The notes beneath the pieces were generated by a model that worked only from the letters and a program-made list of their open reading frames with translations, did no database searches and was not told the origin of the DNA. From positions 544,001 to 608,000 of the forward strand of contig CBDCKW010000009.1 of NCBI GenBank assembly GCA_965218435.1: a DNA stretch of 64,000 nucleotides, written 5' to 3'. Origin of the DNA: Truepera sp. GTDB taxonomy: Bacteria; Deinococcota; Deinococci; Deinococcales; Trueperaceae. A program made the translations under genes and the position numbers. Shown here in pieces: positions 24,968 through 42,246 of the stretch. The number at the start of each line of letters is the position of its first letter. Within the stretch, counting starts at the first letter, position 1.

Positions 24968-25639
24968 ATGATCGCAAAACATCGCTCAAAAGCCTGGTAC
25001 GCAAATCTGGCCGCTGAAACTGGCGTCTACGAGTACCCGTGGACGCAGGTGCTGAGTGCGCCTAGTGGTGAAGAGCTTTTTGACGCACTGTTGGAAAACC
25101 TGCTGACGCCTGAGCTGAGGGTGCTCGAGGCCGGATGCGGTCATGGCCGAGACGCCAAACGGTACGCGCCCAGGGTTCAAAGTTATACCGGTTATGATTT
25201 CACTCCCGCTTATATTGAACGTGCTGGGAAAGATGTGCCCCAAGCCGAGTTTGTGGTGTGGGACTCGAGCCGTGAACCTCTGCCGGAGCATTTCAAAAAG
25301 CGTTTTAACTTGGTGGTTTCGCGGCGCGGCCCTACGAGTGTGATTCCGCACTTGCCGGAATTATGTGTTCCTGACGCCCAGGTTCTCTGTATCCATCCCG
25401 AAAGCGGCGCAGCACGTGTTACGGAGCGGCTGGCACAAGCAGGTTTAGAACCGGAGGCCGAGTGGCACGTCCGCGTCAGAGGATTTTTGCCGACGCAACA
25501 AGATTTCGTTGCTTATCGGCAGTTTCATGGTGATGAGCGCACTTTAGAAGAGCTTGATGCAGAGTGGGACGAGGGTAAGGAGGCTGAGGGATTTCCTCTG
25601 GAGGAGCAGCGGTATCTTTATCTGCTGCGTATGCCGTAA
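24968..25639 (+). CDS. class I SAM-dependent methyltransferase
   Basis: VLEAGCGHG, SRRGPTS; RBS GAGGAGG. Confidence 0.82.
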   Translation: MIAKHRSKAWYANLAAETGVYEYPWTQVLSAPSGEELFDALLENLLTPELRVLEAGCGHGRDAKRYAPRVQSYTGYDFTPAYIERAGKDVPQAEFVVWDSSREPLPEHFKKRFNLVVSRRGPTSVIPHLPELCVPDAQVLCIHPESGAARVTERLAQAGLEPEAEWHVRVRGFLPTQQDFVAYRQFHGDERTLEELDAEWDEGKEAEGFPLEEQRYLYLLRMP

Positions 25640-25789
25640 TTGGCACACAGTGTTTGCTTTTAGCTGCAGTGCAGAGGTTAACAAGGTCGGTGGTTCGGGC
25701 TAAAGCTATTCGGCATCTATTAGATGTTCAGCCGTCTTTAACTAACGGCAATATAACGCACTGGTGCCAGGGCTATTCAAGCGTCTAAA

Positions 25790-26179
25790 CTACCAGCACG
25801 AGATAGGAAAAACCTTAAAAGCTGGGTCTTGACTGAGCAGGGTTACACCCTCTGGCAGCGCAGGCGCTGCCAGCATCCGGTCGAAAGAGTCTTTGTGCGG
25901 GGCCTCGAGCCTCCCTGCTAGGCGCACGTGCGAACCTCGTATCGGCAGCTCTTGTGCGCCGAGTTGGAGCAAAAACCCTTCGTAAAGCTCATCATCCAAA
26001 AAGGGTGCAACTTCGGGCCATTTGCCCAGATAGTGCTTGATGCTCATCTCCCAAATACAGACTGCGCTAATTAGCAAAGTGTTTGCCGAGTTGCTCAAAC
26101 GTAAACGTGCTGTAGCGCCAAGCCTAGTAGGGTCACCGACTGCTCAGGCGAACGTATGGGTATCAAGCAGGTAGCGCAC
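25790..26179 (-). pseudogene. vapC: VapC (PIN-domain) toxin with premature stop
   Basis: GTG 26179: MRYLLDTHTFA*(TGA 26144-26146, Trp position)...SAVCIWEMSIK...HKDSFDRML; in frame with ORF 25790-26098. Confidence 0.85.
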
Positions 26180-26198
26180 CTAAGTATTTGTTCAGTGT

Positions 26199-26426
26199 TT
26201 ATTTGCCGTAAAACGTCGCTATAACTTCGTCGTCGGTGGGCTCGAGCAAGTTACTCTCAAAATGGATGGGATAAAAACCTAAGCTGCGCTTTTGCGGTAA
26301 GCCCAAACCGGTAAGTTTCGCTATAGGTTTGCCGTAACGAGAGATGATGATCTCTTCGCCGCTGCTGACCTGCTCGATAAGTTCAGAGAGCTGCGCTTTC
26401 ACCTCGTGCAAGTTGAGCGTCTTCAC
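26199..26426 (-). CDS. Phd/YefM-family antitoxin
   Basis: NLHEVKAQLSELIEQVSSGEEIIISRYGKPIAKL. Confidence 0.88.
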   Translation of the reverse strand: MKTLNLHEVKAQLSELIEQVSSGEEIIISRYGKPIAKLTGLGLPQKRSLGFYPIHFESNLLEPTDDEVIATFYGK

Positions 26427-26576
26427 ATAGCCTAAACAACCTGGTCTAAAAACGCAATCTCTACAAGCGTTGATACCCTTTGCCGGGACGTAGCTCGGGC
26501 ACCCCCGCTCCTGCTAACCCCATAAAACCTCGAGCAGTTTGCCGAAGCTGACGTCGGCGTTGCCCCGGCTACCTTT

Positions 26577-28052
26577 CTAAGCGTGTCCCAACGCTGCTTT
26601 AACCTCAGCCACTTCATCCCACGGGAGCGTTTCGTGACGGCGCTCGAGCGTCGTTTCGTGCCCTTTGCCCGTAAGTAGCACCAGGTCACCCGGTTCGGCG
26701 AGGGCCAGTGCCTGCCGGATCGCTTCACGCCGGTCGGGAACGACGAAGAATGTCTTGCCTTCGCCGCCGCCGCCGCCCTTTGCACCTTCGGCGAGCTGCG
26801 CCAAGATGCTCTGCGCGTCTTCCGAACGCGAGTCCTCTTCGGTAAAAACGGCGAGGTCGGCGTTGCGGGCGGCACTCTCACCTAAAGGTATGCGTTTGCC
26901 GGGGTCACGCTCGCCGGCTGCACCGACGACGACGATCAGCCGCCCCGACACCTGGGGCCGCACGGCCTGCAGCGCCTTAGTCAGGGCCGGGGGCGTATGG
27001 GCAAAATCCACCACGACTGTAAACGGCCCCTGCTGCACGACCTGCATCCGCCCGGGAACGCCGGGGAAGGTGGCCAACCGCCGAAGCAGCACGCCGGTAG
27101 ACATGCCTGTTTCAGCCGCGGCTGCAAGTGCAGCCAGCGCGTTTAGGACGTTGTAACGCCCGACCATCGGTAACGACGCCTCAAAGCGGGCACCGCGGAG
27201 CTCGAGTAGCCACGCCAGTCTGCCGGGAAGCTCCCGCACCTCAGCTGCGCGCCACACCGCCCCGTCAGCCGTGCCGTAACTGATACTCCGCGCCGCCCGC
27301 TGCGCAAAAAAACGGTACTCCGGGTCATCAAAGTTAAGGACGCTGACGCGGGCACGGTCAATGAGCTGCAACTTAGCCTCACGGTAGGCGGCCATCGTCC
27401 CGTGAAAGTCCAGGTGTTCGGGCGTGAGGTTCGTCCACACCCCGACGTCGTAGTCCACCTCATCGAGGCGGCGCTGCGCAAACCCGTGTGAACTCGATTC
27501 GATCACGGCGTAGCGGCAGCCGGCCTCGACAAACTGTGCGAGTAATCCTTGAACGACGGGCGCTTCGGGCGTCGTAAAGTGGCCGGGAAACGTCAGCGTC
27601 TCGCCCCGGACCTTGACCCCGGCGGTTGACAAGAGCCCGGTCGGAAGCTCGGCTGAGAGCAGATGATAGAGAAGATGGGCCGTCGTGGTTTTGCCGTCGG
27701 TACCGGTTACGCCCAGCGTATAGAGTTTTTGTGAAGGGTGGTCGTACAGCGTGGCCGAGAGCTTCGCTAAGGCCACCTTATCGTCGGGCACATAGATGTA
27801 CGGGACCGCGTAAATCCAGGGAAACGTCTCTTGTTCTTGAGGCAGCGCGGTTCCGACCACGGCGACCGCGCCTTGTGAAATCGCCCGTTCCGCGAAGCGG
27901 TGACCGTCGAGTGCGCCGCCCCGCCTCGCTACAAAAACCGAGGGGATACCCGTTTCTAAGTCGCGGGTGTCTTGCGACACGCGCAGCACATCGGTGTCGG
28001 GCAGTGTTAGGCGTAACCCGAGCGCGTTACGAACCAGCTTTGAGAGCTTCAT
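26577..28052 (-). CDS. murE: UDP-MurNAc-dipeptide amino-acid ligase MurE
   Basis: GVTGTDGKTT, TTPEA, ESSSHG, NLTPEHLDFH, VDFAHTP, GAAGERD, GKGHE. Confidence 0.93.
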   Translation of the reverse strand: MKLSKLVRNALGLRLTLPDTDVLRVSQDTRDLETGIPSVFVARRGGALDGHRFAERAISQGAVAVVGTALPQEQETFPWIYAVPYIYVPDDKVALAKLSATLYDHPSQKLYTLGVTGTDGKTTTAHLLYHLLSAELPTGLLSTAGVKVRGETLTFPGHFTTPEAPVVQGLLAQFVEAGCRYAVIESSSHGFAQRRLDEVDYDVGVWTNLTPEHLDFHGTMAAYREAKLQLIDRARVSVLNFDDPEYRFFAQRAARSISYGTADGAVWRAAEVRELPGRLAWLLELRGARFEASLPMVGRYNVLNALAALAAAAETGMSTGVLLRRLATFPGVPGRMQVVQQGPFTVVVDFAHTPPALTKALQAVRPQVSGRLIVVVGAAGERDPGKRIPLGESAARNADLAVFTEEDSRSEDAQSILAQLAEGAKGGGGGEGKTFFVVPDRREAIRQALALAEPGDLVLLTGKGHETTLERRHETLPWDEVAEVKAALGHA

Positions 28053-28230
28053 GCTGCCGACCTTTGACACCCCATCTGCTGCACACCTTGGTAGCTCATA
28101 GCTGTTTCACGCATCTATCTCAGCTAGTATAGTCGCCCTGTCAAAAAATATCACGAGTCGTGCCGTGTGCGGTAGCTGTCAGCCGAGTCACGTCGCTTTG
28201 ACGATGAGACGCGTGTCTCGAGCTCCCGTG

Positions 28231-28857
28231 CTAGGGCGATAAGATCGGTTCGGCGAGGTAGGGGCGTAGTCGTGCGAGCAGCTCCTCGAGAGCGGCCTCG
28301 TCGTGAACGAAGTCGAGGGCGTCGGCGTCCAGCACGACTTTGGGCGAAAGGTCGTACGCCGTAAACCAGCGTTCGTAAAGCGCCTCTAGTTGGAGCAAGT
28401 ACGCGTCTGAGAGCGCCGCCTCGTAGCTGCGCCCGCGCAGCGCGATGTGGCGGCGCAAGGTCGGCAGTGACGCCCGCAGGTAGATGAGCAGGTCGGGGGG
28501 CCGGAGCACGTCCCGGACAGCCTCAACCAGCGCGCTGTAGACGCTGAAGTCGCGGGCGTCCAGCACGCCCGTCTCGAAAAGATTACGGGCAAAGACCTCG
28601 GCGTCTTCGTAGAGTGTCCGGTCTTGAATCACGCGGCGGCCCGGATTGACCTGCGAAACGTGCTGTGCCAAACGTTTGGTTAAAAAGAACAGCTGTGAGT
28701 GAAACGCGTAACGCGGCATATCGGCGTAAAAATCGGCTAGATAGGGGTTTTCATCTACGGCTTCAAACACGGGCTCGAGTGCAAAACTCGTGGCCAAAAC
28801 CTCGGTTAAACTCGACTTCCCCGCCCCGATATTGCCAGCTACGGCGACAAACATCAA
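28231..28857 (-). CDS. deoxynucleoside kinase
   Basis: GNIGAGKS, ENPYL.DFY, QDRTLYED, RGRSYE. Confidence 0.9.
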   Translation of the reverse strand: MMFVAVAGNIGAGKSSLTEVLATSFALEPVFEAVDENPYLADFYADMPRYAFHSQLFFLTKRLAQHVSQVNPGRRVIQDRTLYEDAEVFARNLFETGVLDARDFSVYSALVEAVRDVLRPPDLLIYLRASLPTLRRHIALRGRSYEAALSDAYLLQLEALYERWFTAYDLSPKVVLDADALDFVHDEAALEELLARLRPYLAEPILSP

Positions 28858-28867
28858 AGGGTCCGCA

Positions 28868-29470
28868 TCAGGCCACCTGAACGCGGCGAAGAACGTCAGC
28901 CAAAACCTTTTCGCGGTCGCTTGTAGACCCTACAAAATCGTACTCGGCGGCCTCGAGCACCAAAAGCGGCGCGTCGTAGGTTTCAAAAAAGCGGTCGTAG
29001 GCGCTGCTCAGGCGCTCTAGATAGTCCGCTTCAATCGCCCGTTCAAAGGGCCGTCCCCGCTGCGCGATACGCTGCAAAAGCAGTTCCGGCGACGCCCGCA
29101 GATAGACCGTCAGGTCGGGACGTGGGGCCTTCGGGCTCAGCTGCGCGTAAAGGGTCTCGTAAAGCCGCCACTCGTCGCCTTTGAGGTTAAGTGAAGCGAA
29201 GATAAAGTCTTTGTCGAAGAGATAGTCAGATACGGTTGCGTCGTAAAAAAGTGAGCCCTGCACTAGTTCTTGGAGCTGCTTGTAGCGCGAGAGCAAAAAA
29301 AACGTCTGGGCGCTTAAGGCGTAGCGGTTGGGGTCGCCGTAAAACCCGGCTAAAAAGGGATTTTCTGTGGCAACCTCGAGCACCAGCCGCGCCCCGAGTT
29401 CGGCGGCTAACAAGCGGCTCAAACTGGTTTTTCCGGCTCCTATCGGGCCTTCGGTAACGATAAGTGGCAT
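28868..29470 (-). CDS. deoxynucleoside kinase (tandem paralog)
   Basis: EGPIGAGKT, ENPFL..FY, DYLFDKDFIFA, RGRPFE; RBS GGAGGA before ATG 29470. Confidence 0.9.
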   Translation of the reverse strand: MPLIVTEGPIGAGKTSLSRLLAAELGARLVLEVATENPFLAGFYGDPNRYALSAQTFFLLSRYKQLQELVQGSLFYDATVSDYLFDKDFIFASLNLKGDEWRLYETLYAQLSPKAPRPDLTVYLRASPELLLQRIAQRGRPFERAIEADYLERLSSAYDRFFETYDAPLLVLEAAEYDFVGSTSDREKVLADVLRRVQVA

Positions 29471-29709
29471 GACGTACTCCTCCGTAAAATAGGGTTGGTT
29501 CTTTAGGAGATAACGGGTCAAACGCGACAAGCGTCCCAAGTATACCCGGCTCGGCGTGTACTCCTGCGCGGTTCGTTTTTACAGCTGGATTTTGGGAAAG
29601 CTGAAGGTGAAAGTCTTCACTTCGGCGCAGCGCTTAAGCCGGAGTTAAGTTTTACGCGCTTTACTAACCGAACTTTCCCTCTAATAGAGGTCTAAAAAGG
29701 CGGTGGCAG

Positions 29710-30165
29710 GTGGACAGCGTACAGTACCGGGCGGTTAGCGCCGCACCCTCTGCGCGTCAGTGCGCTCGGCTCGCCGCCGCGCTCGGTGTCGAGCGGCGCA
29801 CGCTGGCGCAAGTCTTAGCCGGAGCGCAGCACAACCTGTACCACCTTCGCACTATGACGCTCGCCGACTTAGGGGCGCTCAACGTTACGCTCCGCGACGC
29901 TGAGCGCATCTTTTATCTAGTGCAGTGGGAACGGCTACAGGCCCACCTCGAGCAGTGCGAAACGCTTCCGCAAGAGGATTTGGGGCCACTTTTAGAAACG
30001 CTTACCCCGATTTTTGACCGGCACTTCAGCCGTAACATCCGCTTAAACGAAACGCTTTTGGCGCTCTACCGCACCGAATTCGGGACTCGTAAAGCTGTGC
30101 GCCCGAGCCCGCTGCCTTCCTCTCCGACGCGGCGGTTTTTACACTGGTTAAGTTTTTATCTGTAG
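29710..30165 (+). CDS. hypothetical helical protein
   Basis: 151-aa ORF filling the gap, plausible codon usage; no recognised family. Confidence 0.5.
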   Translation: MDSVQYRAVSAAPSARQCARLAAALGVERRTLAQVLAGAQHNLYHLRTMTLADLGALNVTLRDAERIFYLVQWERLQAHLEQCETLPQEDLGPLLETLTPIFDRHFSRNIRLNETLLALYRTEFGTRKAVRPSPLPSSPTRRFLHWLSFYL

Positions 30166-30241
30166 TAGGATAATCTGGTTTGAGACGGCCTTCTAAGGGT
30201 ACCGGGCAGCTCGACCTCAGTTGCTTGGCTTAAACCCACAG

Positions 30242-30270
30242 TTGACAAGCCTCTCCGACCCGGCTACTCT
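30242..30270 (+). promoter_or_regulatory. sigma70-type promoter for MFS leader
   Basis: TTGACA (30242-47), 17 nt, TACTCT (30265-70). Confidence 0.72.
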
Positions 30271-30279
30271 GAACGCATC

Positions 30280-30410
30280 ATGATAACCACCGCCTAACTT
30301 AAGCGACCTCGAGCCATTTACAACTTATTGACATCATTTACAGCTGTAGCGCGGCGATGTGCCCGCGTCTTGGCAAAGCTGGGGTGTAGACCTCATCTTA
30401 GTTGGGCGGT
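30280..30410 (+). promoter_or_regulatory. candidate translational attenuator with 5-codon leader ORF (MITTA)
   Basis: ATG ATA ACC ACC GCC TAA 30280-30297; ACCGCCTAACT (30289-99) can pair with AGTTGGGCGGT (30400-10) just before TTG 30416. Confidence 0.55.
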
Positions 30411-30415
30411 ACATT

Positions 30416-31630
30416 TTGTCTCCACGTTTGCAGTTTCCTCTGTCGTCTTACACCGTCTATCTCGTCTTGGCAGGGGCAACGGCTTTTTCCTTGACGGTTT
30501 TCGGTACCTTGTCGTCGGTTTACCGGCTTCAAACAGCCGGCCTGAGTCCGTTTCAACTCGTGCTGATCGGGACGGTGCTCGAGCTGAGCGTTTTTGTCTT
30601 CGAGGTGCCGACCGGTATCGTCGCCGACCTTTACAGCCGCCGCCGCTCAGTGATTATCGGCATGTTTTTGATTGGCGCGGGGTTTGTGCTCGAGGGCCTC
30701 TTGCCGGTATTCGCCACCATGCTCGTCGCGCAGGTCATCTGGGGCGTCGGCGCAACCTTCGAGAGCGGCGCAACCGAAGCCTGGATCGCCGACGAACTCG
30801 GCGCGGAACGGGTTGGCGCAGCATATCTTCGGGCGGTACAGGTCGGACAACTTGCCTCACTCGGTGGGATTGCCGTCGCCGTGGCCCTCGGCAGCATCTA
30901 CCTCGGGTTACCGCTCGTCGTCGGTGGGGTCGGCTTTTTCATGGTTGGTATGTTCTTGCTGCGCTTTATGCGCGAACACGGCTTTAGCCCTGCAGACAGA
31001 ACCGCTCACCCACTCGCTGCGATGGGGGAGACGCTGCAGAAGGGTCTGACCCTCGTCCGGCGAAACTCAACCTTGCTTACAATTCTCGTCATTACCGGCA
31101 TTTTAGGCGCGTCGTCGGAAACGTTCGACCGGCTCTGGGAGGCGCGTGTGTTACGACTCGGCCTGCCCGGTTTGGACGCACTTCCCGATATAGCTTGGTT
31201 CGGTCTGATCAGCGCCGGGGCGATGCTGTTGGCCTTGCTCGCCACCGAAGGGGTACGGCGCTACACAGACCGAGGCCCGCGTTTTACGGTGAAACTGCTC
31301 GCGGGTATCAGCACCTTGCTGATGCTGAGCGTCATTGGCTTTGGTCTAGCCGGTAATTTCGCGGTAGCTCTGGCTTTTTACTGGGCGTCGTACCTGCTGA
31401 GGCGGGTGAACGCACCCCTTTTTGCGGCGTGGCTGAACGGGTACTTGGAGCCTCAAACTCGAGCCACCGTTTTCTCGCTCAACAGCCAGACCGACGCGCT
31501 CGGGCAGATTGCCGGGGGGCCACTTTTGGGTCTTTTGGCTAATGTGTCGCTACGCGGTGCGTTCGGGGCAGCCGGGGTGTTGCTGCTTCCGGCGGTGCTC
31601 CTCTACTGGCGACTGTTGCATAAGACTTAG
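30416..31630 (+). CDS. MFS efflux transporter, TetA(P)-like
   Basis: LSPFQLVLIGTVLELSVFVFEVPTGIVADLYSRRRSVIIG, ESGATEAWIADE, SETFDRLW, GQIAGGP; start uncertain (30359 or 30416). Confidence 0.82.
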   Translation: MSPRLQFPLSSYTVYLVLAGATAFSLTVFGTLSSVYRLQTAGLSPFQLVLIGTVLELSVFVFEVPTGIVADLYSRRRSVIIGMFLIGAGFVLEGLLPVFATMLVAQVIWGVGATFESGATEAWIADELGAERVGAAYLRAVQVGQLASLGGIAVAVALGSIYLGLPLVVGGVGFFMVGMFLLRFMREHGFSPADRTAHPLAAMGETLQKGLTLVRRNSTLLTILVITGILGASSETFDRLWEARVLRLGLPGLDALPDIAWFGLISAGAMLLALLATEGVRRYTDRGPRFTVKLLAGISTLLMLSVIGFGLAGNFAVALAFYWASYLLRRVNAPLFAAWLNGYLEPQTRATVFSLNSQTDALGQIAGGPLLGLLANVSLRGAFGAAGVLLLPAVLLYWRLLHKT

Positions 31631-31746
31631 CGGCTAAGTGTTTTCGGGATTCTCAAGACTAAACATATAGATCGCCTTTTCAAAGCAAAAACTACACTTG
31701 TTATAGTTGTGGCTAGTTAAAGGCCATTAGCAGCGAAGGGTAAACT

Positions 31747-33987
31747 ATGGAAGTTATAGACAGAGATCAAGGTATTACGGAATCTCTAAAAGCAGGATTA
31801 GACGCCGGTCTTTTCCAGATAGACGAAGAGCAGAAGTATCTAACCTACCTCAAGGCAGGCGAAAAAAAGCGCCTTGCCAACCCGGAAGAACCCGTCCGCG
31901 CTGAAGCATATATGAAGCTCGTCCTCGAGTACCACTATCCTGCTAAGCGCCTCAGCCTAGAAGTGCCCGTCAAGATGGGTTCGGACACACGCCGCGCGGA
32001 CATCATCGTTTACGAAGATGACGAGAAGAAGAAACCTTTTATGATTGTCGAAACTAAAAAGCCTGACGTATCAGACGCGGCTTTTAGTGAAGCCGTCAAT
32101 CAAGGCTTTAGCTATGCCAACGCCTTAAGTGCCGATTTTGTCTGGGTAACATCGGGACTCAAATCCGAAGCTTACGACGCGAAGTCTTTCTACCCGATGG
32201 AGCGCGAGAGCAACCTCGTTGCTGATATTCCGAGCTATGGCGCAAAGGTCGCGCGTTACAAATACGCCGTGGGCGGCGTAGGTGGTAAAGAACTCGAGAA
32301 AGTCAGCGAGGATGTCCTGACCCGCAAATTCAAACAAGCCCATGACGCGCTCTGGGCAGGTGGAAAGCGTAATCCGACTCAAGCATTTGACGAACTCGAC
32401 AAGCTCATCTTTTGCAAGCTTTGGGACGAACGTATAGACCGTGACGACGGTGAACCCTATGACTTTCAGGTATTTACCGGCGAAGACCCGGACGACCTTT
32501 TGAAACGCGTAAGAAAGCTGTACGAAATAGGACGAGAAAAAGACCCTGAAGTCTTTCAAGAAGATGTTCGTTTGACAGGCAACGAACTCCAGACCGTTGT
32601 GGGCTACCTCGCCGAGATAGATTTGGGCGCAACTGATCTGGACAGTAAAGGACGCGCCTTTGAAGAGTTTATGGACGACTTTTTTAGGGGTGAGTTCGGT
32701 CAATACTTTACGCCGCGCCCGATTGTTAAGTTTATCGTAGATGTTTTGCCTATCACTAACGAGTCTCACGTGCTCGATACCTCATGCGGCAGTGGCGGGT
32801 TTTTGCTTTATGCGTTAGACAAGGTACGTCGTGAAGCACAAGAAAAACTTGATAGAGGTCAGTTCAGGCAACGCAACATTCACCCCCAAACGCAGATGTA
32901 CAACTATTGGCACGACTTCGCTGAAAAACGCCTTTTTGGGATTGAAATCTCGGAAATGATTGCCCGTACCGCCAAGATGAACATGATTATCCACGACGAC
33001 GGGCATACCAACGTCATAAGTTTCGACGGACTACAGTCTCCCGAACGGATGCGCAGCAAAACAGGCAATCAAGGTTTCAAAGAAAATCACTTCGACTTCA
33101 TCATTACGAACCCGCCCTTCGGCGCAAAAATCTTGTCGGATGAGCGCAGCTACATGCAAGATTATGACCTTGGCACACGCTACACTGACTGGATAGACGC
33201 TGAGCTAAAAGGCGAAGTTGTAACGACTCGCGACAGTCAAAGCTCTGAAGTGCTGTTTATCGAGCAGTGCCACCGCTTCTTAAAACCCAGCGGCATCCTC
33301 GCTATTGTCGTGCCGGACGGTATCTTGACGAACTCGAGCCTTCAGTACGTGCGTGACTGGATAGCTGAACACTACCGCATTTTGGGTGTCGTCTCGATGC
33401 CGCAAACCGCCTTTACCGCGACCGGCGCAGGCGTCAAAAGCTCCGTGATGTTTTTGCAAAAGTACAGCGACACAGAGACCGCGCACATTCAAAGCACCAA
33501 AGAAGCTGTGCAGAACAGCCTATTTGGGCAAGACGAGTACGGCCCCGCGATTGCGAGACTGGAAGAAGAGAAAAACCGCGTATTGAAACGCGGCGACGAT
33601 ACGATGAGGCAACTCGAGGAAGCACACGAAGATCACCTCGAGGCGCTTGGCGAGGTAGACAAGGCTGCTGAACGCACCCTCAAACGCGAGCTGCGCGAGA
33701 AAATCAAAGCACACCAGCGCACCGACGCCCACAAAGAGTGGCGCAAAGCCACTACCGACAGCTACAACGAACGCATCAACGCCATTAAAGAGAGCTTGGC
33801 AAGTACCTTTGCCGAAGAGGTTCAGGCCCAGCTGAGCGACTACCCTATCTTTATGGCGATTGCCGAAGATATAGGTTATGACGCGACGGGAAGAGCGACC
33901 GGCAAAAGCGAGTTGAAACCGATAATAGAAGAGCTGAGCCGGTTCATAGGTGCTGTACAAGAGGGACGTGATAATTTTTTCGCATAA
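31747..33987 (+). CDS. fused restriction endonuclease (HsdR-N-like PD-(D/E)xK) + N6-adenine methyltransferase, type IIB/type I-like RM subunit
   Basis: PEEPVR, RADIIVY...IVETKK nuclease motif; GQYFTPR, DTSCGSGGF (motif I), TNPPFG (motif IV), VVPDGIL. Confidence 0.9.
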   Translation: MEVIDRDQGITESLKAGLDAGLFQIDEEQKYLTYLKAGEKKRLANPEEPVRAEAYMKLVLEYHYPAKRLSLEVPVKMGSDTRRADIIVYEDDEKKKPFMIVETKKPDVSDAAFSEAVNQGFSYANALSADFVWVTSGLKSEAYDAKSFYPMERESNLVADIPSYGAKVARYKYAVGGVGGKELEKVSEDVLTRKFKQAHDALWAGGKRNPTQAFDELDKLIFCKLWDERIDRDDGEPYDFQVFTGEDPDDLLKRVRKLYEIGREKDPEVFQEDVRLTGNELQTVVGYLAEIDLGATDLDSKGRAFEEFMDDFFRGEFGQYFTPRPIVKFIVDVLPITNESHVLDTSCGSGGFLLYALDKVRREAQEKLDRGQFRQRNIHPQTQMYNYWHDFAEKRLFGIEISEMIARTAKMNMIIHDDGHTNVISFDGLQSPERMRSKTGNQGFKENHFDFIITNPPFGAKILSDERSYMQDYDLGTRYTDWIDAELKGEVVTTRDSQSSEVLFIEQCHRFLKPSGILAIVVPDGILTNSSLQYVRDWIAEHYRILGVVSMPQTAFTATGAGVKSSVMFLQKYSDTETAHIQSTKEAVQNSLFGQDEYGPAIARLEEEKNRVLKRGDDTMRQLEEAHEDHLEALGEVDKAAERTLKRELREKIKAHQRTDAHKEWRKATTDSYNERINAIKESLASTFAEEVQAQLSDYPIFMAIAEDIGYDATGRATGKSELKPIIEELSRFIGAVQEGRDNFFA

Positions 33988-34033
33988 GCCCCGGCGTAGA
34001 TAATCCAACTATATTTATATCTAGTTGGGGCTT
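33975..34033 (+). promoter_or_regulatory. candidate -1 programmed ribosomal frameshift signal (T-TTT-TTC plus downstream hairpin)
   Basis: Heptamer 33975-33981; hairpin AAGCCCCGGC(G)TAGATA 33986-34002 / TATCTAGTTGGGGCTT 34018-34033; S frame open from exactly 33975. Confidence 0.6.
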
Positions 34034-35360
34034 GGCAAAAGAAAGATTAGACCCTGAAATAGTTCTGTTCAATAGCAGAGCCACTAACTTTAACTATCCC
34101 GTTGAGAGATTGGCTACTTTCTTGTCGTCTCCTCCTCAATATGGAGCTAATGAAGCTGGCATCCTGAGACTCGATGATAGTGAACCCCGTTATATAAGGA
34201 TTACCGACATTGACGAGTATGGAAGTTTAGTTCCCGGTTTGGGAGTTACGGCAACAAACGTCGAGGAAAAATACTTTCTCAAAAATAACGACCTACTTTT
34301 TGCCAGAAGTGGCAACACTGTAGGCAAAAGCTATCTGCATAAATCGAGTGATAAGTCCCACGCGCATTTCTTCGCCGGGTATATGATTCGCTTCACTATT
34401 GATGCCGAAAAGATAAGTCCTGATTATGTTTTCGCCTTTACTCAGACTCGAGCCTATGCAGATTGGGTAAAGGCAGTACAGCGGGTGACAGGACAACCGA
34501 ACATCAATGCCGATGAATACAAGTCCCTACCTATTCCGCTTCCGCCCTCGAATGTACAAAACACAGTGATTGACCTTCTTGAAACAGCGTATAAAGTCAA
34601 AGCTAAGAAAGAGCAAGAAGCTGAGCGGTTACTCGAGTCTATTGACGGTGTGGTGCTCGAGGCTTTAGGCATCAACCTACCTGTTGAGGAAGAGGGGGGA
34701 CTCGAGGGACGAAAGTTCTTCCGTAGTTTCCGTGAGCTGAATGCTACAAGGCTTGATCCTTTCCCATATCAGCAACGTCGTATGCAAGCTATCCGAGCGA
34801 TTGATGAAGCTCACCTTCCCAAAAAACGTTTGCACGATGTTTTTCTGTTCCGTAAAGAAGTTGTTACACAAGCAGAAGGGTTGCCTTACATCGGACTGGA
34901 AAACGTTCGCTCAAACACAGGGGAATATATAAGCTCCAATGTGGAGAAGGAAACGTTTAATAGCGCCCTCCGCTTTTATAAGGGTGATATTTTGTTTCCA
35001 AAATTACGACCGTATCTGAACAAAGTACACCTAGCTTCGTTTGATGGGGTTTGTTCAACAGAGTTTCACGTCTTGACGGCAGCGAAAGGGCTCGAGGAGT
35101 ACCTAGCTGCATGTCTACGTTCTCGACTTATTGTCAACCAGACGTCTTGCCTAATGACTGGTAACACGCTCCCTAGGTTGCAAACTTCCGATGTGGAAAA
35201 CTTACTGATTCCTTTGCCGGATGAAACAGTTCAAAAAAACATTGGTGAAGAAGTTAGAGATGTTCAAAAACAGGTCAACCAGATTCGAGAGGAAGCAAGT
35301 CAAACAGTCGCCCAAGCCAAACAACAAGTTGAGCGGGTGATTCTTGGGGACGTAGCGTGA
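33975..35360 (+). CDS. RM specificity (HsdS-like) region with two target-recognition domains; no ATG/RBS of its own
   Basis: RLDP...YIRITDI...LLFARSGNTVGK...GQPNINADEY...IPLPP; second RLDP...KLRPYLNK...CSTEF...LPRL...IPLP; ORF-track start is TTG 34032. Confidence 0.88.
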   Translation, partial: FFRISPGVDNPTIFISSWGLAKERLDPEIVLFNSRATNFNYPVERLATFLSSPPQYGANEAGILRLDDSEPRYIRITDIDEYGSLVPGLGVTATNVEEKYFLKNNDLLFARSGNTVGKSYLHKSSDKSHAHFFAGYMIRFTIDAEKISPDYVFAFTQTRAYADWVKAVQRVTGQPNINADEYKSLPIPLPPSNVQNTVIDLLETAYKVKAKKEQEAERLLESIDGVVLEALGINLPVEEEGGLEGRKFFRSFRELNATRLDPFPYQQRRMQAIRAIDEAHLPKKRLHDVFLFRKEVVTQAEGLPYIGLENVRSNTGEYISSNVEKETFNSALRFYKGDILFPKLRPYLNKVHLASFDGVCSTEFHVLTAAKGLEEYLAACLRSRLIVNQTSCLMTGNTLPRLQTSDVENLLIPLPDETVQKNIGEEVRDVQKQVNQIREEASQTVAQAKQQVERVILGDVA

Positions 35361-36202
35361 AAATCACGTATCAGGTTGGGTACAGAAGCGACCTGGACAG
35401 CGACGAAAGTTTTGACGACCTCTTGGCGAGCGAACTTCAAAGAGCCTTTGCCGATGAATACGAGGAGGTGAGTGAGGCGGATGTGTTCGACTACTTTCAG
35501 GTACATTACGAACATCCGCTCAACGAGGACGAATCGCTAATCGCTTTCGAGTTGGACATCCCTACCGAGAAAACGGAGATTCAGCAGGCACGGCTTATGG
35601 AGGATATACACCGGCGTATTAGAGCTATTGAAGGCGTCTTTGTATTCTTCAAGTTTCACGACGAAGGTCTTTTTGGTTCATTGCAGAAGCTCTACGCTGA
35701 AATCTTTGCGCTCGAGATGAAACTACGCGAAATTGCCACGCTGATCTTTGCCGATACCTACCGGGGCAACTACCTTGACCATATCCGAGAGACGAAGGTG
35801 AAACTCTCCAGCACAGAGCTTAACCAGGGCGGTAATAACAAAGAAACCAGACTGAAAAGCCGCTTTGAAAATGAGTTCTTCCATATTTCATTTAGCGATT
35901 ATCACAAGCTGCTCGAGCCGCGTGAGCTGAAAGAGCCAGACCTGCTAAACTTTGCATCTAAAGCGGAAACCTTTGAAGACTTCAGGGATTATGTCCGATA
36001 TAGGGGTGTGCAGAATGAATACTACCGTGACTTCTTCGCGTCAATTCGTCCACATATGGATGCTCTGGAAAAGGTTCGCAACTGTGTTGCTCATGGCCGG
36101 GTAGTATCTGAAAACGAATACCAAAACTTTGAAGTCGCCAAGGCTGCTGTTCAGGAGCTGATAGATAGCTTTTTCACCGGTCTACAACAGGAAGTTGAAT
36201 GA
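35357..36202 (+). CDS. HEPN-domain putative RNase (Swt1/Abi-like) in RM operon
   Basis: GTGA overlap with S stop; LYAEIFALEMKLRE helix and R-x4-H motif LEKVRNCVAHGR. Confidence 0.72.
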   Translation: MKITYQVGYRSDLDSDESFDDLLASELQRAFADEYEEVSEADVFDYFQVHYEHPLNEDESLIAFELDIPTEKTEIQQARLMEDIHRRIRAIEGVFVFFKFHDEGLFGSLQKLYAEIFALEMKLREIATLIFADTYRGNYLDHIRETKVKLSSTELNQGGNNKETRLKSRFENEFFHISFSDYHKLLEPRELKEPDLLNFASKAETFEDFRDYVRYRGVQNEYYRDFFASIRPHMDALEKVRNCVAHGRVVSENEYQNFEVAKAAVQELIDSFFTGLQQEVE

Positions 36203-36221
36203 ACCTGACAAAATAGGACTG

Positions 36222-36719
36222 CTAGTCCTGCTTTTCATACCGCTGCTTATGCCGTGCTCTTTGCCGCACATATTCCGGGTCTTCCTTAGCCTGGACGTAC
36301 TTCTCGTAAAAAATGGCCGCTGCCGCCGCCTTTACGGGGTCTTCGGTTCGGGGCAAGGTGGCACGGCCGTGTGCGCCGCTCTGCCCTTTTTTGTCCTCGG
36401 GTACCGGCCCGTCGTACTTCTTGCCGCCCTTATGGTTCGCGTAACGCCGCGCCCGCGTCCAACCCATCTGTAAAAACTTCCGCGCCATATCCGCACCCGG
36501 AAAGTCCTCAGCCTCGAGGTAAGCCTGAAACATCTCAAAGAGTTTTTTGGAGGACACTTCAGCCACTTCCGGGTTCTTAAAGCGCCAGTGGGGGAGGAGT
36601 TCGCTCTTGTATGGTTCTACGAGTAGCACGCCCTGCTCCCCCTTACCGATACGGTAAAGCTCGGGGTGTTCCCGAAAATTGATCGTCTCAAAGTCGAGGT
36701 CATAGTCAAACGCCGCCAT
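36222..36719 (-). CDS. DUF4385 family protein
   Basis: YRIGKGEQGVLLVEPYKSELLPHWRFK, DMARKFLQMGWTRARRYANHKGG. Confidence 0.85.
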   Translation of the reverse strand: MAAFDYDLDFETINFREHPELYRIGKGEQGVLLVEPYKSELLPHWRFKNPEVAEVSSKKLFEMFQAYLEAEDFPGADMARKFLQMGWTRARRYANHKGGKKYDGPVPEDKKGQSGAHGRATLPRTEDPVKAAAAAIFYEKYVQAKEDPEYVRQRARHKQRYEKQD

Positions 36720-36787
36720 AAGAAAGTGTAGCGGGTTCTAAAAAGAAGTACGTGGCTGCTGCGCATAATTAGTTAGGAGGCACGCTA

Positions 36788-37039
36788 ATGACAACATTTG
36801 ATGACGCTTACAGCTTGGTGGGTTCAGGGGTTCCTGCGCCCGACGTACCGATGCCCACCGGCCCGCAAGAGATGCCCGACGTACCGGGGCAAGAGCCGCT
36901 GAATATACCCGGTGACGAACCGAATGATATACCGCTCGAGGTTCCCGAAACACCCAACCGCGATGCGCCGCTGGATTCACCCGGACGTGAGCAGCCGTCT
37001 GAAAACGATGACTTGCCGGGGCGAGAAGATGACATTTAG
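36788..37039 (+). CDS. small acidic proline-rich, probably disordered protein
   Basis: RBS AGGAGG; 83 aa rich in P/D/E with PGxEP-like repeats. Confidence 0.6.
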   Translation: MTTFDDAYSLVGSGVPAPDVPMPTGPQEMPDVPGQEPLNIPGDEPNDIPLEVPETPNRDAPLDSPGREQPSENDDLPGREDDI

Positions 37040-37086
37040 ATAGAGCTATGCTGAGCGGCAACTCAGATAGCGTACGAGGAGCTGCA

Positions 37087-37518
37087 ATGAGTCAAAATGC
37101 AAGTAGGGTTTTTGTATTTGGAACTTTGAAGCGGGGCTTTCCTCTACATGATGAGGGTCTACATGGTGCGACGTGTCTCGGCGCGTACAAAACGGTCAAG
37201 AAGTATCCGATGCTTGTTGCCGGACGTTGGTACGCACCTATGATGGCCTATGAACCCGGCACTGGATTGTGCGTTAAAGGTGAGCTGTACGAGGTAGATG
37301 CTAAAACACTCGAGCTTCTTGACAAGCTTGAATCTGTTCATCAGTCTGGTAATTACCGCGAAGTAGTTGAAGTTGAATCCCTAGAGACAGCGGATACACT
37401 GTCTGCCTATGTGTATGTTAAATCAAGAGAGCTGATGACGCCGAGCCACACCGACTATTTAGAAGATTATCAGGATAGAAGGTTTGTACACCCGAGCCAA
37501 AGAGCGAAAGAAGATTAG
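37087..37518 (+). CDS. gamma-glutamylcyclotransferase (AIG2-like) family protein
   Basis: VFVFGTLKRG, VKGELYEVD, LDKLE. Confidence 0.85.
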   Translation: MSQNASRVFVFGTLKRGFPLHDEGLHGATCLGAYKTVKKYPMLVAGRWYAPMMAYEPGTGLCVKGELYEVDAKTLELLDKLESVHQSGNYREVVEVESLETADTLSAYVYVKSRELMTPSHTDYLEDYQDRRFVHPSQRAKED

Positions 37519-37600
37519 CTGAGCGATTCAACTCAGGTGGAAACTAAAGATTTCCAAGCAAAAGCACCCGGCTCGCAATGACTTGTAAAGGAGGCTGAAC

Positions 37601-37825
37601 TTGAAAGTGCTTGACACGGTTGTCCTGAACAAAGATTTGCCGAGCCGGGGTTTACGTCATAACGACGTCGGTGCAGTTGTCGAGGTGTACGAACCGGATG
37701 GGCTCGAGGTCGAGTTCGTCACCGGTTCAGGCAGGACTCGAGCGTTAGTGACGCTAAAAACAGCTGATGTTCACTTGTTCGGCGACACAGATGTTCTCGC
37801 TGCGCGTTCTCTGGACGCAGCTTGA
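37601..37825 (+). CDS. DUF4926 domain protein
   Basis: LDTVVLNKDLP..GL...DVGAVVEVY..DGLEVEFV..SG.T.ALVTL; RBS AAGGAGG. Confidence 0.8.
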   Translation: MKVLDTVVLNKDLPSRGLRHNDVGAVVEVYEPDGLEVEFVTGSGRTRALVTLKTADVHLFGDTDVLAARSLDAA

Positions 37826-37870
37826 TAAAAGATTGGTATGGCTGGCTAGATATGCAACAATAGCTGCACT

Positions 37871-38884
37871 GTGCTGAAAAATATCTGTAAAACGCTTTTG
37901 CTGCTCGGTTTTGCTGCTCAGCTAAGTTATGCGCAGCCGCCATTGTCTGAGATTCGACCTAAACCGGTGGTTGCGGCTACTCTAAAGCTTTTCGACACCT
38001 ATCCCGTCGTCGGTATCGGCGAAGTGCACGGTTTGCAGGAGTTGGGTAACTTTTACGTCAATCTCGTAAGCCAGCCGACTTTTGCAAAAGATGTTGGCAA
38101 CGTAGTTTTTGAGTTTGGCAACGCTTTCTTTCAGCCCACTATAGACAAGTATCTGGCGGGCGAAGAGGTGCCTTATAAAGAGGTGAAGAAAGCTTGGACA
38201 ACTATGGTTGGGACGATGGGTTCCGACAAGATTTCAGTGATGTATGGGCAGTTCTACAAGGCTGTAAGAGAAGCAAATCGAACCTTGCCAGAAGGCCAAA
38301 AGATAAAAGTCTGGTTGGGCGACCCGCCTACAGACCCTGACGACCCGCTCGCTTACACCCCTGAACGGCCTCCAGACCGGGATGCGTTCTTTTCCGATAT
38401 CGTTTTGCAAAAGATTTTAGCAAAAGGTAAAAAGGCGCTGCTCGTCATCGGGGCAGGACATGTTGTAGACGATGGCTTGAGGGCTAGTACCGCCACAATT
38501 TTTGAATGCAAATATAGACTGCCCTATAGGTACAACGTTAGAGCGTGTATAGATGCTTACTATCCCGGCAAGCTTTTTCTTATCCAAAATCACTGGGGTT
38601 TGCCCAAGCCGTTTTGTAACCGGCAGCTGGAAGCGCGGCTCGAGTCAGGCCCAGTTCCATCCCTGACGTCCCTTCGAGACACAGCCTTAGCAACTTTTTT
38701 AGATAGCCCCGAGTGCAGCTCTAAATCTTGGTGGGGGACGCTCACTAGCGCATGGAGTAATGCGTACTTGTACTTAGGAAAAAGCGATAAGCTTATCCTG
38801 TCGCCGCTTCCTGGAGAGCCAGAAACGCCCTTCTCGAAATGGGTACATGAGGCTGCACCTTACCTCAAAAAGCCGAACGAGTAG
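37871..38884 (+). CDS. secreted protein, ChaN/erythromycin-esterase/TIKI-like fold
   Basis: Signal peptide; VVGIGEVHG, VVFEFG, RD, LLVIGAGHV. Confidence 0.6.
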   Translation: MLKNICKTLLLLGFAAQLSYAQPPLSEIRPKPVVAATLKLFDTYPVVGIGEVHGLQELGNFYVNLVSQPTFAKDVGNVVFEFGNAFFQPTIDKYLAGEEVPYKEVKKAWTTMVGTMGSDKISVMYGQFYKAVREANRTLPEGQKIKVWLGDPPTDPDDPLAYTPERPPDRDAFFSDIVLQKILAKGKKALLVIGAGHVVDDGLRASTATIFECKYRLPYRYNVRACIDAYYPGKLFLIQNHWGLPKPFCNRQLEARLESGPVPSLTSLRDTALATFLDSPECSSKSWWGTLTSAWSNAYLYLGKSDKLILSPLPGEPETPFSKWVHEAAPYLKKPNE

Positions 38885-38967
38885 TTTGCTACCAGCTTGG
38901 GTAAGACTCGAGCCCTAGTCACACTAAAAATAGCCGGTGTTCAGCTGCTTACCGAGTAAAATGGTTT

Positions 38968-39675
38968 ATGTATAGCCGAACTGCTCAATACTAAGATTTA
39001 ATCTACGGTTTCAAAGATTACAGCGCGGAAGCTGAGAAAATCACAGCTCTTATACGCGAAGAACTGCCGACTGCAAAAACGATTTTAGACGTAGCCTGTG
39101 GCACTGCTGAACACGCTAAGTCGCTCTCCAAACAGTTTGAAGTTGACGGCATTGACCTCGAGCCCGCCTTCGTAGAGATAGCCAGAGGAAAAGTCCCTTC
39201 CGGCAAGTTTTGGCTTGCTGACATGAGCGGTTTTAGTTTGTCTAAAACGTATGACGTTGTGCTGTGCCTGTTCTCTTCTATCGGTTATCTGCCGGCGAAA
39301 GAAAGAGTCGTTGCTGCTCTTGAGAGCTTCAAAAAACATTTGAACCCCAGTGGTGTCATCTTTGTCGAACCCTGGATTACGCCCGAGAACTGGGAAGTTG
39401 GCCATACAACTATGGTCACGGCTGAATCGAATGATCTTAAAATCTGCCGAATGAACGTCGCCGAACGAACCGATAACCGCTCCGTACTCAACTTTCACTA
39501 TCTCGTTGCCACAAAACAGGGCGTCGAGCATCTTGAGGAAGCTCACGAACTCGTTCTCTATATGAAAGAAGAGATGCTCGAGTGTTTTATAAAGGCGGGT
39601 CTCGAGGTTGCTTACGACGAAAGGTCTTTCGGTCGAGGTTTGTATACTGCGCACATTGCATCCGAACATACCTGA
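38968..39675 (+). pseudogene. SAM methyltransferase (TylM1/DesVI-like) with premature stop
   Basis: MYSRTAQY*(TAA 38992-94)DLIYGFKDY...ILDVACGTAEH...ADM...CLFSSIGY...VEPW; in frame with ORF 39223-39675. Confidence 0.82.
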
Positions 39676-40750
39676 GGGGTGTGCATGACTAGCGTAAAGC
39701 CAACATGGTTTGTTTGAGACACAGTAAGTCACGACCCAGGCGAAGATTGAAGTAAGCAAGGAGTAAGTAGGCGAGCGCAGCCAAGGTCACGAGTGCTCTG
39801 ACATTGGCTAAGCCTTTAACGAGTAAATGTTCAAGTTTGAAGAGTGCCTTGAGACGACCTTGGAAAGGTTCGACAGTAGCTTTGCGCAAGGCGAAGACCT
39901 CTCTAACCTCAGGGTCGTTATAGAGTCGGGTGCGCTCACAACGGTCTTCGGGGGTGTTAGTTTTGACTTGAAGAGGGGCGATGAGGCTGATACCCCGCTC
40001 GTCGCAAGCGTCGTAACAAGGGGCTGTTCGTCATAGCCGCCGTCAGCTAAGACAAGGTTAGTGTCTTCGCTCAAGCTGGCGCTGAGTTCTCGGCTGAAGA
40101 CCTGAGCGTCTTTGACGTTAGCGGGATAGACACAGATGTTGCGTGGTAGCGGGGCAGTTGCGTCAGCATTGACGAGGCAGTGTAGGCGGTAGCCAAACAC
40201 CCACTCACCCTGCCCTGAAATACCCCAATGCGCTTCTTGGTCGATATTGCCACATGAGGGCAGCTTGCGGGCTTTCCTATCTTTACTGTGCCAGACATTG
40301 CCCTCAGCGTGCATTAAACTGGAGTCGGCACTCATGACGCTTGCCTCACCGATACCCGTTTCTATAAAGTGCTCGTGTAAGGTCGTCATCGCCTGCTGCA
40401 AGCCTTTAGGTATGCGCTTGAATCTGCGACTCAAGGTGGTGCGGTGGGGCAACTGATCGAGTCCCACTAGAGCAAGCACCTCAGGTCGCTCAAGTAAATG
40501 ATCATGCAGCGTCTTGAAGCCGCTGATGCCTTTGACGAGTGCATACAAAAACAGCTTGATTAGGCTGCTTTCTCCGTAGCTGTAACGGTCTAGCGTTTTA
40601 GGTAAATCCAGTTCATCAACCAGGCTCAAGTAGCTCTTCAGGTCTAGTGTTATCATTCTCCAATGCCTCCTTCATGGCGTTTTCGCTTTCTCCATTGTAG
40701 GAGGCTCTATCTTTATTCGGCTTTTCGTATCTTTATGTGCTCACCCCTCA
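39673..40750 (-). mobile_element. ~1.08-kb insertion sequence with DDE transposase (IS982/IS5-like)
   Basis: Inverted repeats TGAGGGGTGTGCA (39673-85) and TGCTCACCCCTCA (40738-50), 12/13 match; flanks CATAcc and CATAaa. Confidence 0.85.
39689..40656 (-). pseudogene. DDE transposase, frameshifted near 40020
   Basis: PHRTTLSRRF, ADSS (D), WG...WVFGYRLH, ADGGYD (D); continues in another frame CYDACDERG...RKATVEPFQGRLK (E). Confidence 0.85.
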
Positions 40751-40893
40751 CATAAATAGCCTTCTGAAAATGATGATCTACCTGGAATAGAAGAGATCAC
40801 ATAATTCCGGTTTTCTGCTAAGCTAGCTGTTCAAAACGAAGATGTACTGGCGTTGCACTTAATAAATCGTCCAATTTTGGAGTTGATCAGCAG

Positions 40894-41529
40894 ATGAGTA
40901 TCAATAAATTTGGAAGCATTCTTTTGAATGAGGAGCAAGAACGGCTACAAAATTACGCTGCGCATCTGATGGAACCTGATACCCAGCGAACGCTTTTGCT
41001 CACCGCGCACCTCGTTTCTGAGCGTCTGCTTAGTGAAATGATTGAGACAAAACTTTTCTATCCTTCAGTTTGGCTAGATGGGGCTGATTACCGTGACAAA
41101 GTGAACTTGGCTCGAGCAATGAACCTTATTGGTGAAGATGAATTACGGATCTGTCGTGTGCTGAATTCTGCGAGGAATGCTGTAGCTCACTCTCTTGAAC
41201 CATTATCGGAGAAGTGGCGTGTTGAAGTTTTTAGATTGGCATTTGGACATAGTAAAGTAGAAAACGAAGTATCTGAAGCTGAGATTTGGCGCAAGGCGCT
41301 TGTCGAACTCATTATCTACGTTGCGGCACCGTGGCTTTACGCAGCATTTCAAAGCAAGCATTCAGCACTCCGCAAGCAGCATAAGAACCGTTGGATGGAG
41401 CTGATGGCTGAGCAACTGCAAACAGTCCCTGATCTCAATGCAGTAGTTGATAATGCTACTGAGCACAAACGCCTTGCAGAAGAAGTTGACCTTCTACTTG
41501 TGAAGGAGCTACAGGATAAGAGCAGCTGA
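40894..41529 (+). CDS. HEPN-like protein (MtlR/DUF4145-like)
   Basis: LLTAHLVSERLL...KVNLARAM...LNSARNAVAH (R-x4-H); AT-richer than flanks. Confidence 0.62.
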   Translation: MSINKFGSILLNEEQERLQNYAAHLMEPDTQRTLLLTAHLVSERLLSEMIETKLFYPSVWLDGADYRDKVNLARAMNLIGEDELRICRVLNSARNAVAHSLEPLSEKWRVEVFRLAFGHSKVENEVSEAEIWRKALVELIIYVAAPWLYAAFQSKHSALRKQHKNRWMELMAEQLQTVPDLNAVVDNATEHKRLAEEVDLLLVKELQDKSS

Positions 41530-41581
41530 AGACTATCGGTTTTAGGAAATTCGAATTATATTGCACGTTGAGTCTTTTGAC

Positions 41582-41618
41582 AAAAGCACCCCACATTCAC
41601 AAACGGTGCGGGGTGCTT
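41582..41618 (-). terminator. intrinsic terminator-like hairpin
   Basis: AAGCACCCC (41584-92) / GGGGTGCTT (41610-18), short T-run on minus strand. Confidence 0.5.
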
Positions 41619-42246
41619 GCTTAAGTTATGGTGTTACTTCTGCGGCCACTCCGGGTTCGGCACAAAGTCGGTCGGGTCAAGTTCATACCGCCCGACGTCT
41701 TTTTCGTGTTTGACAATCTTGCCGTAAACACGCTGCACGTCGCCTTCGACGAGCCCGTAATCGAAGGCGTCCCCGATGTCGGTTTGTTTGCTCTATCTCT
41801 GGCTCGCTGCCTTTGACTCCCAGGTCATCAAGTGGGGACTGCGTAAGCTGGTCGACCGCACGTCCAGAAGAGACCGCAGTAGCTTTTGCATCGGCTTCGA
41901 CTCCTTACTTCTACTTCGCTGCATCCACCAACGCTTCGTCCCTGACAACCTTTCTTGCCTTATCCGTGAACCGCGAAGGTGTTGGGTGGCTAGTAGTTCA
42001 CTCAACATCTATTGTCGGCTAGATGTAAAGAAATGACTCGTGCCAGACAAAAGTTTCGCTTGAGCCTCTGTAACAAAACTTGTTTGTCGGAGTGCTGGAT
42101 ACCTGTTTTAGGCTTTTGTCGCATACTTAGCTACTGTACATAGACTGAAAAATTGACATCAAGACCGCCTCACGGTAAAACGTAAAGCGGTCTGTAAAAC
42201 TTTGTGGCACACCGGATGATAGGCAAGGGTGCAGAAAAGAGCAACG

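Follow-up and report, generated by a model that had tools for sequence, protein, structure and literature searches.

A probable programmed −1 ribosomal frameshift at the RM–S junction of a Type IIB-like restriction-modification locus in Truepera sp.

Layout of the RM–S junction

The window examined here (64,000 nt of Truepera sp., assembly GCA_965218435.1, contig CBDCKW010000009.1, positions 544,001–608,000) carries a gene for a fused restriction-modification (RM) enzyme, followed directly in the −1 frame by a reading frame for a specificity (S) module. The genes and signals of this junction, numbered from the first base of the window, are as follows.

31747–33987, + strand: RM gene, 746 aa, an N-terminal PD-(D/E)xK-type nuclease fused to a gamma-class N6-adenine methyltransferase
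33961–33966, + strand: Shine-Dalgarno (SD)-like element GAGGGA, 8 nt before the heptamer, anti-SD pairing −6.3 kcal/mol
33969–33974, + strand: double stop TGA TAA, shutting the S frame directly before the slip site
33975–33981, + strand: slippery heptamer U_UUU_UUC (Phe-Phe), class H_HH.U_UU.Y
33985–33987, + strand: RM stop codon TAA, one codon after the heptamer
33986–34033, + strand: 3′ hairpin, 33986–34002 pairing with 34018–34033 (16 bp, two G-U pairs, one bulge)
33975–35360, + strand: S reading frame, 461 codons, two target-recognition domains (TRDs), −1 relative to RM
34032–34034, + strand: TTG, the first start-like codon of the S frame, in the 3′ arm of the hairpin

The RM gene ends GAT AAT TTT TTC GCA TAA, with T-TTT-TTC in the X_XXY_YYZ phase, exactly as read in the initial annotation. 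The S frame, described there as shut just before the heptamer and open from 33975, does run from that base to the TGA at 35358–35360; it matches HsdS proteins and contains PF01420 in two stretches. Because the double stop closes the frame, no upstream start can serve S. A scan for starts agreed that S lacks an ATG or a clear ribosome-binding site (RBS) and that its TTG lies within the hairpin; this codon shows no anti-SD pairing (+1.0 kcal/mol), is not conserved, and is preceded by 19 codons with homology to authentic S N-termini.

A seventh T would fuse the two frames, and the length of the run was therefore compared among assembled contigs, which drop rare variants. Those of X1 and X2 (two runs of one sample, perhaps the source sample) read T6, with 0 differences and 0 gaps over 31500–36299. 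The X3 and X4 contigs, from a second study and about 92% alike, likewise show 0 gaps at the junction. In the related strain of run X4, 34708–35314 is replaced by 659 other bases, which looks like an exchange of the second TRD.

Conservation of the slip site and its stimulators

The junction was compared in 161 loci, comprising the window and 160 related loci from genomes and metagenomes. Classes were assigned by the position of the RM stop relative to the window protein, and the heptamer was not used as a criterion. Seventeen loci without an RM C-terminus or running off the contig were dropped before counting, and eight reading past the usual RM stop were handled apart. The stop is at the window position in 72 of the 161 (the frameshift class) and 3–9 codons earlier in 64; dereplication at 90% left 62 and 57 distinct loci, respectively.

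A heptamer of the H_HH.U_UU.Y class stands one codon before the stop in 71 of the 72 loci; across the genome of the window this arrangement occurs in 2 of 2758 long reading frames, the window locus included. The heptamers of the 62 distinct loci are CCCTTTT (38), TTTTTTC (18), TTTTTTT (2), AAATTTT (2), CCCTTTC (1) and an imperfect TCCTTTT (1), and the RM stop is TAA in 48 and TGA in 14. All 61 perfect heptamers fit the class, against 7.3 expected from synonymous codon choice. Their first triplet varies (CCC 39, TTT 20, AAA 2 of 62), and the encoded residues vary with it, while the slip pattern stays. In E. coli, H_HH.U_UU.Y is among the most efficient frameshift motifs according to a passage of Sharma et al. 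(PMC4066793). By contrast, any X_XXY_YYZ pattern was found in 3 of the 57 distinct shorter-ending loci, by chance. In 62 of the 64 shorter-ending loci, a start codon overlaps the RM stop or follows it closely, usually as ATGA or GTGA behind a good SD. The association of heptamer with stop position is strong (Fisher 5e-29, the rows being related). One mark of a −1 cassette, an in-phase heptamer of an efficient class kept beyond the needs of the protein, is found at this junction. The family is large (of 8000 proteins scored, 7535 reach E ≤ 1e-100; some are labelled plain type I M subunits in their sources), and 109 of the best 120 protein matches end in P/F/N-F-x, as the heptamer class predicts.

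The hairpin of the initial annotation was recovered with its 16 bp, two G-U pairs and single bulge; the 4 nt spacer proposed for it needs one refinement, in that the core conserved among homologues (33988–34031) starts 6 nt after the heptamer. The window hairpin has a z score of −4.56, equalled by 0 of 200 shuffles. Across the loci, stability was judged against shuffles preserving the S peptide and the codon usage of each gene. The median z for the frameshift class is −3.57 (51 of 62 below −2), compared with −0.03 (3 of 47 below −2) for the homologous stretch of coupled loci, where 47 of the 57 distinct shorter-ending loci could be anchored; windows further into S gave +0.36. RNAalifold returned a 9 bp outer helix that is 94% paired, and when the inner helix is added from single folds, 14 of the 16 pairs show double-sided changes. 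The covariation scores were reached by 0 of 500 shuffles, and slid pairing partners are 40–57% paired, compared with 90% for the proposed pairs. A second mark of a −1 cassette, a nearby 3′ structure conserved with covariation, is present as well. The hairpin was also considered as a terminator and rejected: neither strand is listed as terminator-like here, and the T run is on the 5′ side of the stem.

The SD-like element is stronger than its synonymous shuffles in 54 of the 62 distinct loci. An SD-like 4-mer is present in 56 loci, at 7–8 nt from the heptamer in 45 of the 56, and GAGGGA is a probable 5′ frameshift stimulator, unless it descends from the RBS of a coupled-start state.

No S start is shared by the 62 distinct frameshift-class loci; the most frequent position occurs in 24, lies in the stem and has a weak SD. 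Translated in −1 from the heptamer onward, these loci align with genuine S N-termini of the coupled loci, and what precedes any TTG or GTG is therefore true S coding sequence. The comparison of homologues that had been proposed as a check thus came out on the side of frameshifting: loci with the same stop keep the heptamer and a covarying hairpin without a conserved S start, and the hairpin is missing from loci in which S has its own start, which make up a class apart. It is quite improbable that S is a separate protein initiated at TTG 34032, or at the AUA of 33984–33986 overlapping the stop, with a hairpin that merely tunes coupling. A separate S is common in the family, as the shorter-ending loci illustrate, and two loci from the window's own family (L162, L163) are coupled in this manner. 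At the window junction, however, the TTG has neither an SD nor conservation, and starting there would cost S 19 conserved residues. Most loci have CTA as the codon that overlaps the stop, about 18–20 nt away from the SD-like element, and the retention of 61 heptamers where 7.3 are expected would have no reason. With frameshifting, wrong S starts (such as TTG 34032) are predicted in annotations across the family.

Alternatively, the slip could occur in the DNA or during transcription, the T run being phase-variable or slippery to RNA polymerase; this we consider very improbable. In its favour, the T6 of the window is T7 or T9 in relatives, and one in-frame relative of 1201 aa has three Phe at the junction. 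Against this, 38 of the 62 distinct loci offer just C3T4, polymerase is described as slipping efficiently on runs of 9 (PMC5009743), the 3′ hairpin is not yet transcribed while the polymerase sits on the run, and no indel variant at the junction is listed in the four contig sets, from which rare variants drop out. It is hardly credible that the locus is a misassembled fused gene, or that its S has decayed to a pseudogene. Homopolymer runs are prone to error, and S is shortened in 6 of the 72 loci, but it is full length in the window and intact (at least 440 codons) in 60 of the 72, the other 6 being cut by contig ends; moreover, the X1 and X2 contigs are identical, the X3 and X4 junctions are free of gaps, and the same offset recurs in 71 other loci from genomes and metagenomes. 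From these sequence comparisons, the RM–S junction very probably carries a real, conserved programmed −1 ribosomal frameshift cassette.

Frameshift-class loci with named hosts belong to Pseudomonadota (22), Bacteroidota (10) and Thermodesulfobacteriota (2), plus Balneolota and Chloroflexota. On an RM tree (124 rows of at least 600 aa, FastTree only, without topology tests), junction states are clustered yet need 9 changes, and the frameshift signal recurs in several branches. Two loci at 42–44% identity (L164, L173) keep both heptamer and hairpin. No relative was found in viral contigs, and a distant DNA search of E. coli genomes with 33300–34300 gave no match. Plasmids gave 9 records. Of the 3 looked at, L175 lacks an S behind its RM, and the other two are distant, longer open reading frames (ORFs).

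Subunit ratio, fused relatives and the surrounding island

Further features of the RM gene bear on the type of enzyme.

31888–32058, + strand: predicted nuclease catalytic residues E48, D85, E102 and K104, by analogy to BsaXI E73/D90/E105/K107
32785–33120, + strand: methyltransferase motifs, S-adenosylmethionine-binding CGSGGF (aa 347–352) and NPPF (aa 455–458)

The RM protein matches HSDR_N_2 (PF13588, E 7e-20) and PF02384 (E 3.5e-36) in Pfam, and its closest PDB match is RM.BsaXI (8w0p, E 1.5e-42). In aligned frameshift-class RM proteins the four catalytic residues are conserved in 59/59, 62/63, 62/62 and 62/62, CGSGGF in 62/62 and NPPF in 63/63; the predicted catalytic residues and NPPF are near-invariant across 124 relatives. 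The locus has both the nuclease-methyltransferase fusion and the two-TRD specificity module for a bipartite site that characterise Type IIB systems. No ATP-dependent motor subunit is adjacent (ORF list of 25000–43000, and within the island limits described below), a distant hsdR elsewhere in the genome being outside this search. By architecture the locus is a Type IIB-like system with a BsaXI-like RM. It has neither the separate S polypeptide with its own start seen in the BcgI/BsaXI group nor the single ORF for RM and S of the AloI/CjeI/TstI group, as the RM stop intervenes and S is in −1.

In the proposed mechanism, ribosomes would pause at the hairpin and, part of the time, both tRNA-Phe would re-pair one base back (tandem slippage); the genome has one tRNA-Phe (GAA). 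Shifted ribosomes would read S and produce an RM-S protein of 1204 aa (136.7 kDa), and unshifted ones would stop one codon later, giving RM of 746 aa (85.0 kDa), sizes that agree with those first predicted. One RM and one RM-S would then come together as a counterpart of the (RM)2S trimer known from BsaXI and BcgI, with the shift rate setting the subunit stoichiometry. BsaXI is (RM)2S according to a passage of PMC11997821, and RM + RM-S would likewise amount to 2 RM : 1 S, a likely composition provided that about 50% of ribosomes shift or that RM is in surplus. In vitro, an EcoKI MS fusion made by engineering is active only with added M (PMC3510504), indicating that pairing of the M + MS type can work. 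We give this full model, frameshift plus RM + RM-S assembly, a probability of roughly three in four. If correct, it describes a defence enzyme with a subunit ratio set by recoding, in a large family.

Several observations weigh against the model or restrict it. The heptamer of L156 is imperfect (T_CCT_TTT), three loci (L049, L129, L157) have a GTG or TTG overlapping the stop, without SD, and part of the SD-like signal could be left over from the RBS of a coupled-start state. L006 has lost its RM stop, and the closest protein (P0002, 91%) stops 4 codons further on. Both Phe codons are kept in L006, in P0002 and in five other proteins (P0006, P0011, P0015, P0018, P0020), and in these six proteins the zero-frame stop has moved a few codons, into the hairpin; the moved stops, with the lost stop of L006, indicate that the position of the stop is not essential to the signal. 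Of the tree's 63 frameshift-class rows, 41 fall in one CCC clade, and the counts thus overstate independence. The evidence consists of DNA contigs, and a 1:1 ratio is at this stage a prediction. Finally, TstI, a single chain, is reported in a passage of PMC4081073 as a homotetramer, so free RM is not always needed.

This last point underlies an unlikely alternative, in which the frameshift is real and RM-S is a TstI-like homo-oligomer, with free RM as surplus or as a source of extra nuclease domains during cleavage, or with a low shift rate that simply caps the amount of active enzyme. BcgI is described in PMC4081073 as requiring surplus RM subunits for cleavage. On the other side, close relatives interchange separate RM + S, frameshift and T9 junctions, and each of these states can supply two RM for a two-TRD S; fusions with half an S need no slip and show none; and the EcoKI MS fusion requires free M (PMC3510504). 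Assembly of RM with RM-S remains our preferred reading, and these fusions deserve a closer description.

Nine in-frame RM-S fusions (L013, L018, L019, L020, L027, L158, L169, L170, L171) have exactly T9 at the junction. They are found in or next to cyanobacteria where named, and join a two-TRD-type S, which is intact in 5, broken in 3 and cut by a contig end in 1. Given the peptide, the chance of T9 is 0.09–0.49 per locus. In the six T9 loci tested, one T lost or gained leads to a stop within 3 codons, and the usual hairpin position shows a weak hairpin or none. A T9 run in Thermus dnaX gives about 50% transcriptional slippage (a passage of PMC5009743). Judging from the junction sequences, the T9 fusions are likely a mirror-image solution, in which slippage from a default RM-S fusion would give free RM, and they lend support to the 2 RM : 1 S idea; phase variation is an alternative to transcriptional slippage at these loci. 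Four fusions of about 945–980 aa (L024, L149, P0016, P0088), with room for one TRD, lack the run or FF. These half-length-S fusions are probably homodimers with a symmetric site, and the absence of a run is expected if only enzymes with a two-TRD S require recoding.

The model bears on a question that two reviews treat as unsolved, namely the source of a catalytic unit for each half-site in single-chain Type IIB enzymes with two TRDs: the 1 RM : 2 TRD state of AloI and CjeI is called a mystery in one (a passage of PMC3874165), and the RM:TRD imbalance of single-chain enzymes not entirely clear in the other (likewise PMC4081073). PDLC03624, a distant PADLOC family (single-chain RM-S model, 1271 positions), was searched in three samples of 401 genomes. 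At the RM–S boundary, at about codon 856–897, 14 of the 20 loci examined have Lys-Lys-Lys, always encoded as A9 or A10 (L180–L183, L186, L188, L190–L192, L194–L198). Elsewhere in these genes Lys-Lys-Lys is all-AAA in 3 of 13 cases (Fisher 3e-5), codon usage predicts 8.7 of the 14 all-AAA boundary runs, the loci are related, 6 of the 20 have no run, and the genes are 25–35% GC where it occurs. Loss of one base in the A9 run leads to a stop within a few codons. The A9 run is a lead only on the AloI/CjeI-type puzzle, and would apply directly if PDLC03624 includes AloI or CjeI. We tentatively suggest, with somewhat more doubt than confidence, that recoding is a general route to 2 RM : 1 S for two-TRD Type IIB-like enzymes, with at least three solutions at one boundary (−1 shift, T9 and A9). 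If so, the 1 RM : 2 TRD puzzle of AloI/CjeI-type enzymes may be partly apparent, since their genes would also make free RM.

Downstream of S lies one further gene:

35357–36202, + strand: HEPN-like gene, 281 aa, overlapping the S stop (GTGA)

Its product scores 0.97 in the ESM Atlas to an ApeA-like HEPN cluster and has an RxxxxH motif at aa 241. Related contigs contain joints that leave out the RM-S-HEPN block (about 31606–36262) and mark an empty site, and the GC content of the block is 43–54%, compared with about 60% around it. To judge from these features, the three together are a small variable island. A HEPN-like homologue is near RM in just 1 of the 160 other loci; the gene is island cargo, outside the frameshift system, and could possibly encode a ribonuclease back-up for the RM system. 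In a low-GC stretch downstream of the island, a transposase-like ORF was recognised by eye (39808–40656, − strand). The same genome has a second RM + S locus (G000:C9:3927523–3922732, − strand) with 30% identity, GTGA coupling and no heptamer. Its S frame is interrupted by a 311-codon ORF that resembles, by appearance, an insertion-sequence (IS) gene.

Comparison with known systems

To our knowledge, conserved chromosomal −1 frameshifts in bacteria are few. No programmed frameshift in an RM system was described in the open-access literature searched, by full text and main text. A supplement of PMC3711429 lists a 59-gene DNA methylase cluster, which may, with the 69-cluster tables of PMC4066793, bear on novelty.

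BsaXI and BcgI (PMC11997821, PMC9159934) are the nearest in layout, with a nuclease-methyltransferase fusion followed by a two-TRD S and no motor in the island. The window locus differs in that S is reached in −1 via a conserved slip signal, without a start of its own, and in its shorter RM (746 compared with 911–916 aa). The word frameshift is absent from the main text of both BsaXI papers. The single-chain enzymes AloI, PpiI, CjeI and TstI (about 1250 aa) have the same domain order as the predicted 1204 aa trans-frame product, whereas in the window the fusion would be part of the output, beside free RM.

The signal itself resembles those of E. coli dnaX and the IS1/IS3-family cassettes, where a heptamer and stimulators let a single mRNA make both a shorter and a longer product; in dnaX these stimulators are an SD plus a stem-loop. 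The window motif differs in being Phe-based (H_HH.U_UU.Y, not A_AAA_AAG), the shift makes the longer product, and the host gene is a defence enzyme. The T9 slippage of Thermus thermophilus dnaX is paralleled by the T9 fusions of the cyanobacterial relatives.

For the assembly, the closest parallel is the engineered EcoKI MS (Type IMS), in which M + MS rebuilds a 2M:1S core and the C-terminus of M is near the N-terminus of S (PMC3510504). That fusion is artificial and belongs to a Type I system with a separate HsdR, and its free M was proposed to come from proteolysis or stalling, not from programmed recoding. The ingredients of the window locus, a Type IIB RM and a −1 cassette, are thus both already known, and it is their combination at the RM–S junction, as read from the sequence, that appears to be new.

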